Virus record (IMG/VR): IMGVR_UViG_3300022935_000010
Location: 32,001-96,000 of that record
DNA from: a virus
DNA length: 64,000 nt
Strand: one strand, 5' to 3'
Numbering within the stretch: the stretch's first letter is position 1; the number at the start of each line of letters is the position of its first letter. The translations under genes were made by a program, and so were the position numbers. Below, in pieces: positions 1 through 21,043 of this stretch. Below the pieces are notes generated by a model. That model searched no databases. It worked only from the letters and a program-made list of their open reading frames with translations, and had not been told where the DNA came from.

Positions 1-306
1 ATATCAATTCCTTATTACAATCCATTAGATAAGAAAGAGCATCAGTATAATGTGGATTTTTATATGCAGGTCCTTAAAGATGATGGACAAACACAGGATT
101 GGATAATAGAGGTAAAGCCAGAAAAGCACTTTAAGAGACCGATTCTAGAGGGAAATAGCACACTCAAAAAGCTTAAGTCTTATAATCACAAGATGCAAAT
201 ATGGATTACCAACCAAGCAAAATTTAAAGCGGCTCAGAGATGGGCAGATGCTAGAGGCTATAAATTCGGCGTGGTTGATGAGAATTTTTTATTTAAGAGC
301 AAGTGA
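1..306 (+). CDS. gp4: Head completion nuclease, T4 gp4-like (5'-truncated by window edge)
   Basis: Frame is open from base 1 (ISIPYYNPLDKKEHQYNVDF); has the PD-(D/E)xK-type DF...IEVKP motif and the gp4-like C-terminus NQAKFKAA..WA...GYKFGVVDE; next to gp2 and portal genes. Confidence 0.8.
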   Translation: MSIPYYNPLDKKEHQYNVDFYMQVLKDDGQTQDWIIEVKPEKHFKRPILEGNSTLKKLKSYNHKMQIWITNQAKFKAAQRWADARGYKFGVVDENFLFKSK

Positions 307-908
307 AATCCTTTGAAGAGCAGATAAAGGATTTGAGGGATGGATCTAGTTCGGTCTCTCAGGTTTCGACCGATTCAAACAGATACTTTTTTGGTAAGTA
401 TGGCCCAGGCGGTGATGGTGGTAATATGAAATTTGATGGAAATTTTATACCTGGGAAAATTTATTCAGCTTCATATAAAACCAAGACAATGGTTTCTGAA
501 AAACATCCATTCATAGATAGGTCTCCAATATTCATGTTTGTAAAGAAGGAAAGACATAACGGTTCTGATATTCTGATTTCTCTAGATCTTAATGTTATTC
601 CTCCCGACTATAGAGGGAACATTTTATTCAAATTATGGGAACAGTACTTTCCCCTATTTAAGGAAAATTCCCAGCTTCCTTACTCCTCTCAAGCTCCGGT
701 AAGAAATATTACTCAATCTTTTGACAGGCTCCTAAGCGGGACTGGGTGGAAAACATCTTTAACGGGCTTTAAGAGGGATTTTATAGCAGAAGTGAGCGTT
801 GTAGATTATGAGGATTGGGTCAGAATCCCATATATTTCCGATTTTAGGATAGAGGGTCAATCTACCAGTGGGATATATAATGATTATAGATCGAAATTAA
901 ATGCTTAG
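303..908 (+). CDS. gp2: DNA end protector protein, T4 gp2-like
   Basis: IPGKIY..Y.....PFIDRSP...LDLNVIPP.YR resembles the gp2 core; GTG start overlaps the gp4 stop; gp4-gp2 synteny. Confidence 0.6.
   Translation: MKSFEEQIKDLRDGSSSVSQVSTDSNRYFFGKYGPGGDGGNMKFDGNFIPGKIYSASYKTKTMVSEKHPFIDRSPIFMFVKKERHNGSDILISLDLNVIPPDYRGNILFKLWEQYFPLFKENSQLPYSSQAPVRNITQSFDRLLSGTGWKTSLTGFKRDFIAEVSVVDYEDWVRIPYISDFRIEGQSTSGIYNDYRSKLNA
872..879 (+). promoter_or_regulatory. Putative late promoter GATATATA upstream of the portal genes
   Basis: The same GATAWATA octamer recurs upstream of about 15 structural or late genes in this window; analogous to T4 TATAAATA. Confidence 0.65.
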
Positions 909-942: not shown

Positions 943-2553
943 ATGGCCGGATTTAACGAAAATCAAGAAGGAAGCCCAATATTCCAGAGAATACGAGAGT
1001 CTGTAAAGTCTCTTAGTAACTTTGGTATGAGATATGGTGATATGGTGATTAAGAACTCGCAAGCTATCGGGTCGATAGAAGCTGAGTTCATGAAAAAGCA
1101 AGCTATTGACGATGAAAGCTTGCTTTATTCTTTAGGAAGGCAAGACACTACAACCAGGCAGTTTATTAGTTATTATGATAAAGATTATGCTGGTAAAAGG
1201 GATTATCTAAGAAAGTTTGCTTTAAATCCTGAAATTGAGTACATCCTGGATACCGTTTGTGATGAAGCTATAACTTTCGATCCCCAAAACTTCTTCGCAC
1301 ATCCTGCATTCCTAAACTTAACTGACGTAAAGGACAAAGTAAAGGATAGAATCGACGAAAACTTTAAAAAGCTGTACGACATGTTCGGCTTTACTGATGA
1401 TATAAGTGCTTGGCAATACTTCAGGCAATTGATGGTTGATGGATTCCTTGCCTTTGAGATTGTATATAATGACAAGGGTAAGGAGATAATAGGATTTAAG
1501 GAATTAGATGCTACAACTCTAATGCCTTCTGTTGAAAAACAGCCAGACGGAACATATCTAAATGTTTGGTATCAGTATCCTAATGATATTAACAAGAGAA
1601 GGATGCTCTATGATTCTCAGGTTATTTATATTTCTTTTGCCAAAGGTAATACAGTTTCTCGGGTTAGTTATGTTGAAAGACTTATTAGGCCTTACAACAT
1701 TCTAAGAATTATAGAATACACCAGGGTTATTTGGTCTGTAATGAACGCATCTTTTAGAATGAAGATGACGGTACCAATTGGATCGAGGTCACCTCAAAAG
1801 TCAATGCAGACCTTAGGTGAATTGATGAGTATCTACAAAGAAGATATTAGGTTTAATGATGAGAGCGGGGAATTAACTGTAGATGGTAGACCTAAAATAC
1901 AGTTCTACAAAAATTACCTTATGCCTTCTGGTGTAAATGGTACTCCAACTATAGAGCCTATAAATAATGCTGGACCAAACCTTAACGACCCTCAACCGCT
2001 TGCTTACTTTTATGACAAGCTGGTTCAAGAATCGAAGGTTCCTTTTTCTAGATTCCAGGGTCCTGACGGCGGATCGATTGGAAATTATTCAAATGGCGCT
2101 GAAGGACTTGATAAGGAAGAAATAAGATTTGCCAAGTTTATTACTAGGCTTAGATCTATTTTCCAAGATGTCCTTGTTAAGCCACTTTGGATACAGATGT
2201 GTAAAGACTTCCCCGAGCTGGAGAAGGATTATTTGTTCAAGAGTCAGTTGGGCTTGGAATTTGTTTCTGATAATCCGTTTAGGATAAACCAGGAGATAGA
2301 AACCATGCTTAAAAAGAAGGAGCAAATAGATGGCATGTACACTTTAACCGACGACTCCGGTGAGCCCTTCTTCTCTTTAGCTTATTTAATTGAATCCCAT
2401 CTGGGTATGAATGCTGATGATATTAAAGGTAATAAGGAGGCGATTCAAAAAAGGAAGGAAGAAGAAGCTAAAAAGGCTGAAGAAGAAAAGGATGAAGATG
2501 AAGCACAGGAACCCGCAGAGGAATCAACGGAGGAAGCCCCTCCTCAAGAATAA
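943..2553 (+). CDS. gp20: Portal vertex protein, T4 gp20-like, paralog A
   Basis: 536 aa; gp20-like blocks (LNPEIEYILDTVCDEAI, FRQLMVDG, SYVERLIRPYNILRIIE, YFYDKL...KVPFSR, EEIRFAKFITRLRSIF); acidic C-terminal tail. Confidence 0.9.
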   Translation: MAGFNENQEGSPIFQRIRESVKSLSNFGMRYGDMVIKNSQAIGSIEAEFMKKQAIDDESLLYSLGRQDTTTRQFISYYDKDYAGKRDYLRKFALNPEIEYILDTVCDEAITFDPQNFFAHPAFLNLTDVKDKVKDRIDENFKKLYDMFGFTDDISAWQYFRQLMVDGFLAFEIVYNDKGKEIIGFKELDATTLMPSVEKQPDGTYLNVWYQYPNDINKRRMLYDSQVIYISFAKGNTVSRVSYVERLIRPYNILRIIEYTRVIWSVMNASFRMKMTVPIGSRSPQKSMQTLGELMSIYKEDIRFNDESGELTVDGRPKIQFYKNYLMPSGVNGTPTIEPINNAGPNLNDPQPLAYFYDKLVQESKVPFSRFQGPDGGSIGNYSNGAEGLDKEEIRFAKFITRLRSIFQDVLVKPLWIQMCKDFPELEKDYLFKSQLGLEFVSDNPFRINQEIETMLKKKEQIDGMYTLTDDSGEPFFSLAYLIESHLGMNADDIKGNKEAIQKRKEEEAKKAEEEKDEDEAQEPAEESTEEAPPQE

Positions 2554-2563
2554 GTAATAAAGG

Positions 2564-4159
2564 ATGGCAGGATTTTTAGATTACGTAGCAGAAAGATCTT
2601 TCCTTGGGAATCTTTATAAGAATTTATCCAAGGTGGGGAGATTTGGTATGGAGTACGAAGACATGGTTATTCGTAACTCCCAAGCTATTGGTGCTACAGA
2701 ATCTAATTTCTTTAATGAGCAAGGTACAGGATTCACTGAGAATAATGCTTTTTATTGGACTCTTGGTTATCAAGATACTAAGGTAAGAAAGTATATAGCA
2801 TATTTCGATAAGGACTATTTAGGCAAAAGAGACTTCCTTAGGAAATTTTCCCTTAACGGCGAAATTGATTTTATCTTAGATACACTTACAGACGATGCTA
2901 TAAATTATGATGACAAGAATTTTATTGGGTATCCATCTCTTTCTAATATAGACCTAAAGCCTAATATTATAGATAAACTAGACGAAAACTATAGAAACAT
3001 GTATATGCTTTTTGGTTTTCAACAGGGAATACTAGCTTGGCAATATTTTAAGCAATTTCTTATAGATGGATTTCTTGCTTTTGAAATCGTATATTCCACC
3101 GACGGTAAAAAAATAGTTGGTTTTAAAGAGCTAGACCCTACTTCATTGCAACCTGCTACACAACCTCAACCAAATGGTGAGTATCAACAAATATGGATTC
3201 AGTATCCTGGTGATAGCAAGATGACCAGAAATCTTAAAAGCGAGCAGGTTATCTATATTTCTTACGCAAAGGGTAATACTATATCTAGGGTAAGCTATGT
3301 AGAACGTTTAATTAGATCCTATAATATTCTAAGAATCATGGAAAACACCAGGGTTATATGGAATGTTATGAATGCATCATACAGACTAAAATTTGTAATT
3401 CCTGTGGGTTCCCAATCTCAACAAAAGGCAATGCAGACATTGGGACAGCTTATGTCTATTTACAAGGAAGAAATGGAAATAAACGATTCTTCGGGTGAAC
3501 TCACTGTAAATGGTAGACCGAAGGTTCAATTCTATAAGAACTACTTATTTCCGGAAAAAGATGGGCAATCTCCCCAAATTGAAACATTAGATCCTAATGG
3601 TCCTGATTTCAATGTAATGGATAACGTAATTTATTTCTACAATAAGCTTAAACAGGATTCAAAGATACCATATGCAAGGTTTGCTTTCAGAAACGGAACT
3701 CCTGCTAATTATCAAATTAGCATCGACCAATTGGAAAGGGATGAGATTAGATTTGAGAAATTCCTAACAAGGCTCAGATCTATTTTCCAAGAAATATTGG
3801 TGAAACCCTTGTATATACAAATGTGTCTTGATTTTCCTGAATTATCTAAGGACAGATCTTTTAAATCAAATTTAGGCCTAACTTATGTTAGGGAGAATCT
3901 TTTTGAAGAATTTATACAGCTTCAGAATTATACTAAGAGAGCACAGTTTGTAAATGATCTTGGTGAGATGAAGCAGAAGATTGGTGAAGAGGAAGAACCT
4001 TATTTTGATAAGAATTTCCTAATAAAGAGGTATCTTGGACTTACGATGGACGAGTATAAGAAAAACGAGAAGTATAAGGAGATGGAGCAGAAAAAGGCCG
4101 AGGAAAAGGCTAAGGAAGCTGGAGGTGAGGAGGAATCTTCAGATAGTTTCACACTATAA
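2564..4159 (+). CDS. gp20: Portal vertex protein, T4 gp20-like, paralog B
   Basis: 531 aa; colinear with paralog A along its whole length (LNGEIDFILDTLTDDAI, SYVERLIRSYNILRIME, RDEIRFEKFLTRLRSIF). Confidence 0.9.
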   Translation: MAGFLDYVAERSFLGNLYKNLSKVGRFGMEYEDMVIRNSQAIGATESNFFNEQGTGFTENNAFYWTLGYQDTKVRKYIAYFDKDYLGKRDFLRKFSLNGEIDFILDTLTDDAINYDDKNFIGYPSLSNIDLKPNIIDKLDENYRNMYMLFGFQQGILAWQYFKQFLIDGFLAFEIVYSTDGKKIVGFKELDPTSLQPATQPQPNGEYQQIWIQYPGDSKMTRNLKSEQVIYISYAKGNTISRVSYVERLIRSYNILRIMENTRVIWNVMNASYRLKFVIPVGSQSQQKAMQTLGQLMSIYKEEMEINDSSGELTVNGRPKVQFYKNYLFPEKDGQSPQIETLDPNGPDFNVMDNVIYFYNKLKQDSKIPYARFAFRNGTPANYQISIDQLERDEIRFEKFLTRLRSIFQEILVKPLYIQMCLDFPELSKDRSFKSNLGLTYVRENLFEEFIQLQNYTKRAQFVNDLGEMKQKIGEEEEPYFDKNFLIKRYLGLTMDEYKKNEKYKEMEQKKAEEKAKEAGGEEESSDSFTL

Positions 4160-4186
4160 ATAAGTAAGGTTCTTAAATCAATTTTT

Positions 4187-4957
4187 ATGTTAAAGGTTTT
4201 AGTAGTAGGTGAACTCTGTATAGATCGGTTTGTTTACGGAGAGGTAAGTAGAATGTGCCCAGAAGCTCCAGTTCCTGTTTTTAACCCAATCGAAATTGTA
4301 GAAAATAATGGGATGGCGGGGAACGTCGTGGATAACCTGAATTCTTTAAGTGATGACATAGAGGTTGTTCATTGGCATCAGGCTAATAAGATAGAGAAAA
4401 TTAGGTTCGTTGAGAAGAAGAGTAACCATATGATTGTTCGGGTTGACGAGGGCGAAAGTTTTCCAATGGATTCTTTTTCCTTTATGTCTTCTAGAAAGAG
4501 AGGTACGATTAACGAGTCTGATCTGGTAATAATCAGCGACTATAACAAGGGATTTCTTACCACATCTCATATAGAGCAAATAGCTAATCAGGGCAGCTTG
4601 GTTCTTATGGATAGTAAGAAGAAATTGTCTGAAGATCTTATACAGGAAATAACATTCGTTAAACTGAATGAGATAGAATATGAAAACAACAAGGACCTGG
4701 CGGATAAGTACCCAGAGAAGTTTATAATAACCCTAGGTTCCAATGGTGCTATGTTTAACGGAGAGATCTACCCAAGTTCAAATCCACAGGATACCATCGA
4801 TGTAAGTGGTGCTGGAGATACTTTTATATCTGCCTTTTCGCTGAAGTACTTATCTACTGGTAATACTGGTGAATCTATTGAATTTGCTAATAGCGCTTGT
4901 GCAAATGTGGTAAATAAAAAGGGGGTAGCAGTACCAGATTCTTCGTTTAGGATATAA
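4187..4957 (+). CDS. PfkB-family sugar kinase, HldE/RfaE (heptose-7-phosphate kinase) domain-like
   Basis: VLVVGE.CID.FVYG.V.RMCPEAPVPV, GMAGNV..NL, IISDYNKG, DVSGAGDTF ribokinase-family signature. Confidence 0.85.
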   Translation: MLKVLVVGELCIDRFVYGEVSRMCPEAPVPVFNPIEIVENNGMAGNVVDNLNSLSDDIEVVHWHQANKIEKIRFVEKKSNHMIVRVDEGESFPMDSFSFMSSRKRGTINESDLVIISDYNKGFLTTSHIEQIANQGSLVLMDSKKKLSEDLIQEITFVKLNEIEYENNKDLADKYPEKFIITLGSNGAMFNGEIYPSSNPQDTIDVSGAGDTFISAFSLKYLSTGNTGESIEFANSACANVVNKKGVAVPDSSFRI

Positions 4958-17279: not shown

Positions 17280-19295
17280 ATGAACGAGTCTTTATTGAAT
17301 GGGAACCTTCTCTTCATCCTTGAAAAGCAAGAAAATAATCTTGCAGTTTCAAAGGACGGTAACTCGGATGGTGGTGGTTATATACTCAAAGGTATTGCTG
17401 CTCAGTTTGGGAAAGAGAATAATAACAATAGAATATACGAGGAAGGTGAATACCTACCTCACCTTGAGTACCTAAAGGATAAGATAGGACAAAAGAGATT
17501 AGTTGGTGAATTAGATCACCCTGAAAAATTCGACGTATCTCTTAAAAACATTTCTCACGTTGTAGAAGATCTTGTTTATGACAAGGACGGAAGAGTATTA
17601 AACATTAAGGTTCGTTTGCTTGACACACCAGCTGGACAAATTGCTAAGAAATTAGTTGATGCTGGTATACCTCTTTCTATTTCTTCTAGAGCAGCTGGAA
17701 ATGTAGGTCCAGATAAGAAGGTACAGATCAAAAAGATCTTTACTTATGATTTGGTTGCAGATCCAGGTTTCCAAGACGCTCAACTCGAGAGAGTTTATGA
17801 AAGCGCTGGATTTGATGCTTTTGAATTTGAAGAAAGATCAAAAAAATCCGTTGTTAACAACTTAGAGTGTGTAAATGAGTCACTAGGTATAGAAAATGAA
17901 TCTGGGGTAAAGATATATAAAGTTGAAAATAGCGAAGAATTCGAAAAAATCCTTAATCAAGAAAAAAATAAATCCAACATTATGGAGGCCAACAAAGAAT
18001 ATGTTACTGCTGACGAGCTTAATAAGTATTCTATCTTTTTGAAAAATAAGATGGATGAGCTGGAAACGCAGATTTCTGAAATGAAACAACAAGAAGCTCA
18101 AGTTTCCGAGAGCGAAAGTGAATCTGTAGATTGCAAAGCTTTGGAGGAAAGAGTTGCTAAGCTAGAAAAGTACTCCGAGTATCTTGCTGAAAATCTAGAA
18201 AGTGCTATTAAGTACGGTGAGTATTTGTCAGAAAACCTAGATAGCAGCATTACGTATTCTAAGTACCTTGCTGAGAATCTAGACAAGACTATCTCTTATT
18301 CTAAGTATTTGGCCGAAAATGTTGATAAGGGTATTTCTTACACTGAATATGTAGCTGAGAATGTTGATAAGACTATCGACTATTCTAAGTATTTGGCAGA
18401 AAAACTAGATGATGGTATTCAATATACAGAATACGTGGCTGAAAATCTTGATAAGAATATCGCTTACTCTGAATACTTAGCAGAAAATGTTGATAAGAAC
18501 ATTGCTTACTCTGAGTATTTGGCAGAGAATCTAGATAAGGGTATTTCTTACTCTGAATATCTAGCAGAAAACTTAGATAAGGGAATAGCTTACTCTGAGT
18601 ACATTGCAGAAAAACTAGATCAAGGAATAAACTACACTGAGTACCTAGCAGAAAACCTAAATAAAGGTATTGCTTACTCAGATTATTTAGCTGAAAAGCT
18701 AAATGGAAATATAGCTAACACTGAAGCTATACACGAAAGCGTTAAAGCAGAAAACTCGCCAACACTTAACGAAAGTGCTAGGGAAAATGCTGAAAGCGCA
18801 TCTAAAACTGAATTGGTTGAATCAGGATTTGCTGGAGATTATGAAAATCTCGGAAGCAAGATTGATTCTCTAATTGAATCAGTCAAAACACAAAAGACTG
18901 AGGAAAATATAAATGAGGCACAAACGAAAGTTGAGCCGACTGCTCAAACACAAAAAGCAGATGAGGCAATCAACGAAGCCGAAGAAGAAACATTGGCAGG
19001 ATCATCAGGTCACAAATTTATTGATGAAATGCCAGAAGATTACTCTCCGATTTGGGAGTCACTAAATGAAAGTCAAAAGCAATCAGTAATTGCACAATCA
19101 GCTTTCTATAACTTAGAGACTGCTTATCAGATCAAGAACTTCTGGTCAACTCGTCAGCTTGGTGCTAAACCAGTAGGACTTCAGAAACTTCAAGAGAGCC
19201 AAGAAACACCAGAGCCTAAGACGGCTACTAACCCTCAGGGGTATTCAAACGATTACCTTAATTGGGTCGCTAAGTCGCTCGAAGGTAAGTTTTAA
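17280..19295 (+). CDS. gp21: Prohead core protease (gp21) fused to scaffold/core protein (gp22-like)
   Basis: N.NNRIY, GELDHP (catalytic His), LLDTPAG, ISSRAAG (catalytic Ser), TYDLVADPGF; long coiled-coil repeat C-terminal half; directly upstream of MCP. Confidence 0.92.
   Translation: MNESLLNGNLLFILEKQENNLAVSKDGNSDGGGYILKGIAAQFGKENNNNRIYEEGEYLPHLEYLKDKIGQKRLVGELDHPEKFDVSLKNISHVVEDLVYDKDGRVLNIKVRLLDTPAGQIAKKLVDAGIPLSISSRAAGNVGPDKKVQIKKIFTYDLVADPGFQDAQLERVYESAGFDAFEFEERSKKSVVNNLECVNESLGIENESGVKIYKVENSEEFEKILNQEKNKSNIMEANKEYVTADELNKYSIFLKNKMDELETQISEMKQQEAQVSESESESVDCKALEERVAKLEKYSEYLAENLESAIKYGEYLSENLDSSITYSKYLAENLDKTISYSKYLAENVDKGISYTEYVAENVDKTIDYSKYLAEKLDDGIQYTEYVAENLDKNIAYSEYLAENVDKNIAYSEYLAENLDKGISYSEYLAENLDKGIAYSEYIAEKLDQGINYTEYLAENLNKGIAYSDYLAEKLNGNIANTEAIHESVKAENSPTLNESARENAESASKTELVESGFAGDYENLGSKIDSLIESVKTQKTEENINEAQTKVEPTAQTQKADEAINEAEEETLAGSSGHKFIDEMPEDYSPIWESLNESQKQSVIAQSAFYNLETAYQIKNFWSTRQLGAKPVGLQKLQESQETPEPKTATNPQGYSNDYLNWVAKSLEGKF
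17912..17919 (+). promoter_or_regulatory. Internal late promoter GATATATA, probably driving a nested scaffold ORF (in-frame ATG 17982)
   Basis: Lies after the protease domain; followed by an A-rich leader (GAAAAAAATAAATCCAACATT) and in-frame Met235. Confidence 0.55.
18168..18713 (+). repeat. 13 tandem 42-nt (14-aa) coding repeats, consensus xYSEYLAENLDKGI
   Basis: Counted directly in the translation, from KYSEYLAENLESAI to AYSDYLAEKLNGNI; synonymous sites are diverged. Confidence 0.95.
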
Positions 19296-19321
19296 AAACT
19301 AAAAAAATAAAAGATAGTAAA

Positions 19322-21043
19322 ATGAAACTAATCAACGAAGCAGAAATCTTCGAAACCTGGTCTCCTATCATCGAGCAGAAGGCCGGTATTCAAGATGCTG
19401 AAAAAAAAGGATGGTTGAGCAAGTACTGCCACTACCATTCATTAAACGAGTCTGCTGGTGCATATCAGTCACTAGCAACTGTAAACGGTATGGGTGCCGT
19501 ACAACCACCCGCATACCCAGGTGGGTATAACTCCACTGGTTCTGCAGTAGGTACGCAAGCAAATTCTGCTTTCTATAACTCTGCTAACCAAGGTTCAGGT
19601 GATAAGTTTCCTTCACTTCTTCCATTGGCAATTCAGGTTGCTGCGAAGACTGTTGGATTCGATATCGTTCCTGTAATTCCTATGTCAGGTCCTACTGGCG
19701 TACTTTCTTACCTAGATTACGTATACTCAGGTGGTAAAATCAGTCCTGCATCTGCTGGCGCAACATCTGCTGAAGCTCTTGCAACTGCACCTTCTATGAT
19801 CAAGGTAGAATTGACAACCCCTGCAGCAGGTTATCCTGCTAACTTTGCAGTAGGTACTACTTACTACATCACTAACGCTTCTTCAGCTGGTGCATATATC
19901 ACTACTGAGTTTGTTGGTCTATCTAGAATCGATGCATTCCCAATCTTTAGAGTTATGGGATTAACTGCTGGTGAGACTATCTCTGCAGTTCTTGATGGTA
20001 ACGCAGCTAAAATTGGTACTGCAGTAGATGGAAACCAAGCTGGTACTACAACTGCGAGAGCAGAATTGGTTAAAGCTCTTGAGGATCACATCCAAGGATT
20101 CTCTGGTGCTGGTTTCAACAACGACCAAGACTGGCAAGGACCATTCGTAGATGGTACTAAGACTTACAACCCAATGCTAAGAGGTGTTGGTGAGAGCACT
20201 TACTACCAATCAATGGGTCTATCAACGTTCACTAAGTTCGTCGAAGCTGATACTTTCCAAGTAGCTGCTTCAGTAACTACTGAGCAGATCCAAGACCTTA
20301 ACAAGCAATTCGGTATCGACGTAATTTCTATGATCGAGAACGCATTGGTTAATGAGGTATCTCAAGCTATTAACAAGCACATCCTATCTAGAGCATTCGC
20401 TCTTGGTTGGTCTAACCACGACGAATTCTTGACTACAGAAGGTCAGAACTTGAACCTAAACCTCGTTATCGGTGGTACTGCTGGTTCTTACACTATTCCT
20501 TCTTACATAGGTAAGTCTGACTCTGGTATCTCTATCGCTTCTGTTGCAGGTCCTGCTTCAGGAACTTACGAGAACTTGTCAACTCTACAGAGAAGACTAT
20601 TCTCTAGAATTCTAGCATCTGCTAACGTGGTTGCTAACAGAGGAAGAAGAGGTCCTGCTAACTTCATCGTTACTAACGCTAACGTTGCAAGTGCATTGCA
20701 AGACATCTCTCAGTTCACTTTCGCACCTTTCTCTAACACTCTAACTCAGAACAACGGTACACTTTACCCAGTAGGTTCTCTTGCTGGTATGACCGTATAT
20801 GTTGATCAGAACATGAAGTTCGGTGATAACAGAGTATTAGTAGGTAGAAAAGGTGGTGACGACGAACCAGGACTTAAGTTCATGCCTTACATGATGGCTG
20901 AGTCTATCCAAACAATCTCTGAAGGTACTATGTCACCTAAGATTGCGGTTAAGTCTCGTTACGCACTAGTAGAAGCTGGTTTCCACCCAGAAACTATGTA
21001 CTTCTGTTTCCACGTGAACGTTCCTGCTGGAGGTCTATCCTAA
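19322..21043 (+). CDS. gp23: Major capsid protein, T4 gp23-like
   Basis: W.P....., PMSGPTG, T.EQIQDL....GID, E..Q.IN..I, RGRRGPANF, G.LAG.TVYVD, FMPY, PKIAVKSRYAL; strongly biased codon use typical of high expression. Confidence 0.95.
   Translation: MKLINEAEIFETWSPIIEQKAGIQDAEKKGWLSKYCHYHSLNESAGAYQSLATVNGMGAVQPPAYPGGYNSTGSAVGTQANSAFYNSANQGSGDKFPSLLPLAIQVAAKTVGFDIVPVIPMSGPTGVLSYLDYVYSGGKISPASAGATSAEALATAPSMIKVELTTPAAGYPANFAVGTTYYITNASSAGAYITTEFVGLSRIDAFPIFRVMGLTAGETISAVLDGNAAKIGTAVDGNQAGTTTARAELVKALEDHIQGFSGAGFNNDQDWQGPFVDGTKTYNPMLRGVGESTYYQSMGLSTFTKFVEADTFQVAASVTTEQIQDLNKQFGIDVISMIENALVNEVSQAINKHILSRAFALGWSNHDEFLTTEGQNLNLNLVIGGTAGSYTIPSYIGKSDSGISIASVAGPASGTYENLSTLQRRLFSRILASANVVANRGRRGPANFIVTNANVASALQDISQFTFAPFSNTLTQNNGTLYPVGSLAGMTVYVDQNMKFGDNRVLVGRKGGDDEPGLKFMPYMMAESIQTISEGTMSPKIAVKSRYALVEAGFHPETMYFCFHVNVPAGGLS

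Follow-up and report, generated by a model that had tools for sequence, protein, structure and literature searches.

The stretch of DNA analysed here (the window; 64,000 nucleotides) comprises bases 32001-96000 of the 107 kb viral contig IMGVR_UViG_3300022935_000010 from IMG/VR, which CheckV rates as 39% complete. Close to its start lie two consecutive genes, portal A and portal B, whose products belong to the family of the T4 portal protein gp20 (Table 1). A preliminary description of this DNA, made from the letters alone, had reported two intact, colinear gp20-like open reading frames (ORFs) with the lengths and spacing listed in the table, and we located both of these ORFs and found each to match portal families in Pfam and PHROG. 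Specifically, the two proteins scored far above the cut-off (22.9 bits) of the Pfam family Portal_T4 (PF07230), with 200.8 bits for A (E = 4.3e-59) and 207.1 bits for B (E = 5.4e-61), both matched the PHROG portal family phrog_213 (E about 1e-57), and both aligned with PDB chains of T4 gp20 in a phmmer search (E = 6e-13). When compared with each other by BLASTP, A and B were identical at 258 of 505 residues (51%; E = 0). Both proteins begin with MAGF (943-951 and 2564-2572), a start that is kept in all orthologues and in the uncultured huge phage LR756500.

B was modelled with AlphaFold2 from an alignment of 136 rows, and the model reached a predicted local distance difference test score (pLDDT) of 83.5 and a predicted template modelling score (pTM) of 0.78. 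Its top Foldseek matches were structures of T4 gp20 (9mkb, 9lu7, 6uzc, 3ja7; E 5.5e-20 to 3.8e-15, probability 1.0), followed by the portals of other phages. The monomer model of A, which came from a shallow 23-row alignment (pLDDT 46), was too poor for use; the predicted helices and strands of A follow the same order as those of B, to which it is 51% identical over 505 residues. The portal protomer fold with its clip, stem, wing, crown and tunnel loop is thus seen in the B model and extends to A by virtue of its likeness to B. Family, fold and the clip-stem-wing-crown layout, including channel and tunnel loops, are the same as in T4 gp20 (PF07230; 3JA7, 6UZC, 9MKB, 9LU6/9LU7), at an identity to the T4 protein of only about 19-20% (Foldseek). 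Sequence, fold, conserved residues and genomic setting all place the two proteins in the gp20 family, and A and B are genuine, complete portal subunits of the gp20 type. T4 has a single portal gene whose product forms a homododecamer, as does, to our knowledge, every characterised tailed phage. By contrast, two conserved, full-length paralogs are present on this contig and in all sampled members of the two clades described below.

Table 1. Portal genes, their loops and neighbouring features (window coordinates unless stated otherwise)
Feature	Position	Strand	Remarks
Portal paralog A, gp20 family, 536 residues	943-2553	+	Orthologues 65-95% identical, at the same position in all relatives
A-rich 10-nt spacer between A and B	2554-2563	+	Lacks room for a promoter or terminator
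Portal paralog B, gp20 family, 531 residues	2564-4159	+	Pfam, PHROG, AlphaFold2 plus Foldseek
A channel loop, residues 341-354; ancestral Asp349 and Leu353 kept	1963-2004	+	Alignment with T4 gp20 (T4 channel loop 350-359, PMC4493910)
A tunnel loop, residues 368-392; net -1 over the six residues that follow SRF	2044-2118	+	35/35 A-type sequences
B channel loop, residues 343-356; derived Val/Ile and Leu-to-Val	3590-3631	+	Column counts
B tunnel loop, residues 370-393; derived conserved Arg/Lys, first six residues net +1	3671-3742	+	35/35 B-type sequences
Tandem tail-tube-like genes, phrog_32623/phrog_45, 55% identical	Contig 18896-19450 and 19468-20046 (L159:896-1450 and 1468-2046)		Just upstream of the window
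Weakly gp2-like gene (DNA end protector)	303-908	+	phrog_429 at E = 0.0099 only; 3' coding end conserved in relatives
Conserved gene downstream of B, phrog_8133, no known function	4187-4957	+	E = 2.1e-71; same position as the post-portal hypothetical gene of PTm1, by place only
Prohead protease/scaffold fusion, 671 residues	17280-19295	+	phrog_207
Major capsid protein, single	19322-21043	+	phrog_138/28442

In a megablast comparison, the locus did not match any GenBank phage. Its closest named relatives are the uncultured huge phages LR756500 (45-47%) and LR756501/502/504 (36-38%), the Lak megaphages, the Sphingomonas phage PAU and the Tenacibaculum phage PTm1; portals of the same subfamily, at 28-47% identity, are found in LR756500/501/504, Lak megaphages, PAU, PTm1 and an IMG/VR clade with genomes of 253-271 kb. 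From IMG/VR we fetched 144 A- or B-related loci, and A is followed by B on every contig that spans both positions. The group around the window, clade 1, contributed 114 loci with a full-length pair, corresponding to 65 distinct pairs, with an A-B identity of 49-53% in every genome and orthologues that are 65-99% identical. Possible defects were confined to two clade-1 loci, namely a frameshift in B (L045:7629-9247) and an in-frame stop in A (L074:6001-7614, on the same contig as L130), and may represent assembly errors or rare pseudogenes.

For a first tree, greedy clustering at 93% identity of the 65 distinct pairs plus the window pair (43 near-duplicates omitted) left 23 representative pairs, which were combined with five outgroups in a quick IQ-TREE run under LG+C20, with support given by the Shimodaira-Hasegawa-like approximate likelihood ratio test (SH-aLRT) only. 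This tree recovered an A clade (100) and a B clade (100), separated the two together from single-portal phages (99), and showed internal topologies that mirror each other and stems of 0.69 and 0.72 in length. A profile-free exhaustive search through 1.84 billion cluster representatives then yielded a more distant A-like protein (P0003), whose IMG/VR relatives, clade 2, carry a tandem pair in 79 of the 80 loci fetched; used as queries, P0004 returned two partial related loci only and P0011 none. In a joint tree of 9 clade-1 pairs, 12 clade-2 pairs, 21 other representatives and 3 outgroups, A grouped with the first gene of the clade-2 pair (99), B grouped with the second (97), and these two groups joined each other (99). 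Such a topology indicates that one tandem duplication took place before both clades split and that the gene order has been kept since. The two trees thereby bear out the idea of the preliminary description that A and B might form ancient, separate clades. The clade as a whole is large and consists of uncultured jumbo phages of about 270-350 kb, with the duplication at its base.

Single-portal relatives were placed outside the A+B clade in both trees. In the neighbouring lineage (P0016 type, clade 3), one portal was present in 80 of 80 loci, and five P0016-type genomes of 253-271 kb (93-100% complete) encode exactly one portal each, as do, with regard to full-length portals, LR756500, LR756501, LR756504, PAU and PTm1. 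A recent or assembly-derived duplication, which the preliminary description had named as a way for its proposal to fail, was rejected in view of the 51% identity, the presence of the pair in all relatives and the old, separate clades; besides, no single-portal member was seen within the clade. Nor was there any sign of gene conversion between A and B, their identity being steady at 49-53% in clade 1 and the clade-2 genes being comparably diverged. As a side observation, LR756501.1 (142302-142820; L156) and LR756500.1 (256118-256330; L157) contain extra short ORFs that match part of a portal, one being a 342-residue ORF with a match to residues 68-262 (wing) and the other a 190-residue ORF with a match to residues 266-334 (clip), although both phages have a single full-length portal. 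These partial ORFs may be portal-derived accessory genes.

Both portals are under very strong constraint, and the earlier suggestion that selection keeps the two copies could be confirmed. In every bin of dS, the Nei-Gojobori ratio of non-synonymous to synonymous substitution rates (dN/dS) was 0.018-0.029 (A) or 0.014-0.037 (B), which is about 0.02-0.04 for each copy and not near 1; dS was saturated even when the window was compared with orthologues 92-94% identical to it. Both genes have been retained in all sampled genomes of the clade. Across genomes, the pairwise protein identities of A and B have means of 76.4% and 75.8%, respectively, and are tightly correlated (r = 0.92). The same symmetry is seen at the level of ancestral residues: a threshold of at least 70% conservation in 53 single-portal relatives selected 98 alignment columns, of which 73 are kept by both paralogs, 10 by A only, 8 by B only and 7 by neither, and neither A nor B has lost any of the 14 columns that are near-invariant across the family. 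By these measures, neither copy appears to be decaying or to be a fast-evolving spin-off, and both are most likely indispensable. The symmetry between A and B favours two parts of one structure, for which it would be expected, over a working portal accompanied by a spin-off. The two-portal state is genuine, ancient and under strong selection in this large clade, whose members seem to have relied on two different portal subunits from before the time at which they diversified.

These data bear directly on the possibility that one of the copies is non-structural and acts outside virions, be it as an assembly chaperone, a terminase regulator or a decoy. Portal-derived fragments do occur in related phages, as described above, and could be seen as precedents; yet both copies are full length, comprise all four domains and all family-invariant residues, are equally constrained along their whole length, and neither is reduced or fast-evolving. 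We thus regard a non-structural copy as very unlikely. A role in decoy or escape fits poorly, because the two copies are equally, and very strongly, constrained.

To see where A and B differ, we transferred the domain limits of T4 gp20 (PMC4493910) by way of a phmmer alignment that pairs A241 with residue 251 of gp20. Clade-1 columns that are fixed within each paralog yet different between the two amount to 17% in stem helix alpha5, 30% in the channel loop together with helix alpha7 and 32% in the tunnel loop, as opposed to only 2-8% in wing, clip and crown. Columns that are invariant and shared between the paralogs are most frequent in the 24-residue stem helix alpha5 (62%), with the clip coming next (50% of 72). 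In T4, the tunnel loop acts as a DNA valve, touches the tunnel loops of neighbouring subunits and helps to set the 12-mer, and its deletion disturbs 12-mer formation and retention of the full-length genome (PMC4493910). It is this very loop (A 368-392) to which the Gly-rich segment maps that the preliminary description had seen to differ between A and B; the C-terminal regions, described there as different too, indeed carry acidic tails that are unlike each other and unconserved. In the B model, the segment of lowest confidence (377-384) falls within the tunnel loop.

The loop differences are shared by both clades, as judged from 35 A-type and 35 B-type sequences. At the channel-loop column of A349, Asp or Glu is found in 35/35 A-type and Val or Ile in 35/35 B-type sequences, with mostly Asp, Asn, Ser or Glu in single-portal relatives; at the column of A353, A has Leu in 34/35 cases (Ile in the remaining one), B has Val in 35/35, and single-portal relatives mostly have Leu. 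The first six residues of the tunnel loop carry a net charge of -1 in 35/35 A-type and of +1 in 35/35 B-type sequences (with Arg or Lys in one column), compared to a mean of -0.85 in single-portal relatives. In other words, the acidic channel and tunnel loops of A are ancestral, and in B a channel-loop residue is hydrophobic and the tunnel loop is basic. Between the clades, the residues of the tunnel loop turn over while its net charge stays, which suggests that selection acts on the charge and not on individual residues. Overall, the lineage-fixed differences lie mainly in stem helix alpha5 and in the channel and tunnel loops, the elements that line the DNA channel and touch neighbouring subunits. 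The clip, on the other hand, is the part of a portal that docks terminase and neck (PMC4493910), and its conservation between the two copies suggests that the clips of A and B probably both still face these partners.

This distribution of differences needs to be weighed against a reading in which A and B form two separate homododecameric rings with different jobs, namely a portal for packaging and tail attachment and a second portal-like ring elsewhere, which might be stacked on the crown, nucleate an inner body, occupy a second vertex or exist in the prohead only. Both copies being complete and constrained would suit two rings, and so would the finding that the channel-lining loops are the most divergent, as if DNA or proteins were handled differently. 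Moreover, jumbo phages often add structural complexity, and the extra partial portal-like ORFs of LR756501 and LR756500 are in line with portal-derived parts gaining other roles. However, the clip, as the dock for terminase and neck, is among the best conserved parts between A and B, whereas divergence would be expected in a ring that does not dock, and the two copies have diverged symmetrically, whereas a new function usually comes with one fast-evolving copy. We know of no tailed phage with two portal rings and consider this reading somewhat unlikely.

Across the 65 distinct pairs, the spacer between A and B ranges from -1 to 23 nt, and all ATG starts lie at the same aligned position. Because this spacer is short in all relatives, it is reasonable to infer that A and B are co-transcribed, and the short distance would fit a coupled, roughly equimolar synthesis of the two proteins. 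The more specific statement of the preliminary description, that both genes lie behind one late promoter, could not be upheld. The sole T4-late-like string 5' of A, TATAAATG, ends in the A start codon, which makes up its final three bases, and it is not conserved in relatives; the motif TATAAATA is not enriched in the window either (11 occurrences seen vs. 7.35 expected). On these grounds, i.e. overlap with the start codon, lack of conservation and lack of motif enrichment, a T4-type late promoter upstream of A was rejected, and a search of the + strand upstream of A for a sigma-70-like site was likewise negative. There is no Shine-Dalgarno-like sequence ahead of A, and the leaders are A-rich. 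An exact T4-late-promoter-like TATAAATA is present at 4155-4162, where it overlaps the stop codon of B and lies 25 nt 5' of the start of the phrog_8133 gene.

Retention and expression also speak to a further explanation, according to which A and B are alternative portals, with one kind per particle (A12 or B12). This would give rise to two particle types, allow a choice depending on stage or host, or serve as a hedge against portal-sensing immunity. In support, everything that a portal needs has been retained by both copies, and STAND defences that sense portals do exist, the portal sensor being Avs4. Yet alternative portals would be expected to show losses in some lineages and relaxed constraint, neither of which was seen in more than 140 loci; the presumed shared transcript and the short spacer provide no obvious route to separate expression; and at 51% identity and with a shared fold, escape from a sensor that recognises the fold seems doubtful. 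Hence, alternative portals strike us as quite unlikely. Avs2, which the preliminary description had put forward as a portal-sensing defence, is not supported as an example, given that a preprint reports terminase as the target that it recognises (bioRxiv 10.64898/2026.08.25.746987).

The portals are not the only duplicated conduit genes of these phages. An all-against-all BLASTP of the contig returned only two substantial paralog pairs, the portals and the tail-tube-like genes just upstream of the window, and no paralog of the major capsid protein. Two tail-tube paralogs, 54-58% identical, are present in 5/5 long clade-1 contigs, including a genome of 348,582 bp (CheckV 100% complete), and clade 2 has two tail-tube paralogs in 5/5 contigs. 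In single-portal relatives, by contrast, each genome has a single full-length portal and a single gene for the tail tube, one tail-tube copy being found in 5/5 clade-3 genomes and in each of LR756500, LR756501, LR756504, PAU and PTm1. The portal pair and the tail-tube pair are hence perfectly co-distributed over the 10 two-portal and 10 single-portal genomes checked, a pattern that is suggestive only, because it reflects one event on one branch per gene. The tail-tube duplication in the same genomes suggests a joint remodelling of the entire DNA conduit. Both tail-tube paralogs start with MAGLPH (L159:896 and 1468).

The best reading, in our opinion, is an obligate mixed portal ring made of A and B, to which we would assign a little less than an even chance. 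Universal retention, spacing suited to co-expression and equal constraint, all of which a hetero-oligomeric ring calls for, were found for both paralogs. The combination of universal retention, equal and extreme constraint, symmetric divergence and an unchanged docking domain favours two kinds of subunit in one structure, and the opposite charges on a loop that contacts its neighbours are as would be expected of an alternating ring. According to this proposal, A and B would be made together from one transcript and would co-assemble in a single mixed ring, for which an alternating A6B6 dodecamer would be the simplest arrangement. In an alternating ring, the oppositely charged tunnel loops of neighbouring subunits could pair, so that the DNA valve and channel would become six-fold, rather than twelve-fold, in their chemistry, and a six-fold channel could serve the retention or release of DNA in a very large, highly pressurised head. 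The complete version of this model, i.e. an obligate A/B-alternating heterododecamer with paired tunnel loops of opposite charge and a six-fold valve and channel that evolved along with a two-protein tail tube, is held more tentatively still.

Several observations weigh against a mixed ring. Retention, constraint, symmetry and the conserved clip would also fit two homomeric rings that share the same partners, and if B formed a ring of its own, its basic tunnel loop could just as well be an adaptation for gripping DNA. When a strict 90% identity is demanded within both clades, only 7 fixed-difference columns are left, so that the universal A/B signature is small, and the co-occurrence of the tube and portal pairs counts as one evolutionary event per gene. 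A complex prediction for A 60-505 with B 63-510, computed with deep alignments, gave an interaction prediction score from aligned errors (ipSAE) of 0.01, which, controls not having been run, speaks neither for nor against binding. Full-text searching, which did not extend to much of the subscription literature, brought up no account of phage portals that are duplicated or hetero-oligomeric, and we know of no portal that works as a hetero-oligomeric ring.

Duplicated ring genes have given rise to hetero-oligomers in other systems, as in the proteolipid ring of the vacuolar ATPase (V-ATPase; Vma3, Vma11 and Vma16), the alpha and beta rings of the proteasome, and CCT. The likeness to the present case is one of analogy, not homology, and consists in the doubling of a gene for a homomeric ring, the indispensability of both copies and a symmetric loss of ancestral residues; in those systems, however, co-assembly has been demonstrated, whereas for portals A and B it is a proposal. 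The tail tube protein pb6 of phage T5 is another DNA-conduit ring whose symmetry has been lowered by duplication of the subunit fold, yet there the duplicated parts are fused in one polypeptide, unlike the two separate tail-tube genes found here.

The portal is a hallmark single-copy gene of tailed phages and herpesviruses, and current ideas on the initiation of head assembly, the 12-to-5 symmetry mismatch, DNA packaging and genome gating assume twelve identical subunits. A mixed A/B ring, if true, would provide the first example of a hetero-oligomeric portal among tailed phages and herpesviruses, and the clade would show how a homomeric viral machine turns heteromeric. Besides, the fixed differences in the channel and valve loops make this clade a natural experiment on loop function, and the use of portal genes as single-copy markers for phylogeny or counting in viromics would mislead for a clade with two portals.

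The genomic setting of the portal pair resembles that of T4, with gp4-like and weakly gp2-like genes upstream, sheath and tube genes further upstream, and protease and major capsid protein genes downstream. In order, this T4-like morphogenetic core comprises the tail sheath gene, the two tail-tube-like genes, a baseplate-hub-like gene, a sigma factor gene, the gp4-like head closure gene, the weakly gp2-like gene, portals A and B, the phrog_8133 gene of unknown role, genes for a DNA ligase, a clamp loader, a guanylate kinase and exonucleases, the protease/scaffold fusion, the single major capsid protein gene, an Ad2-type adaptor gene, and baseplate wedge and hub genes. PTm1 shares this local order, with an end protector gene, the portal gene and a hypothetical gene in succession. 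A long series of large ORFs on the + strand (21139-47363; up to 988 residues) separates the capsid gene from the genes for adaptor and baseplate; most of these ORFs yielded no PHROG match at E <= 0.001, and they probably encode novel virion proteins. The search for tRNA genes in the window was negative. In the protein encoded at 17280-19295, the first ~310 residues match a head maturation protease and are followed by a long extension, and a similar fusion is annotated in PTm1 as 'prohead core scaffolding protein and protease'.

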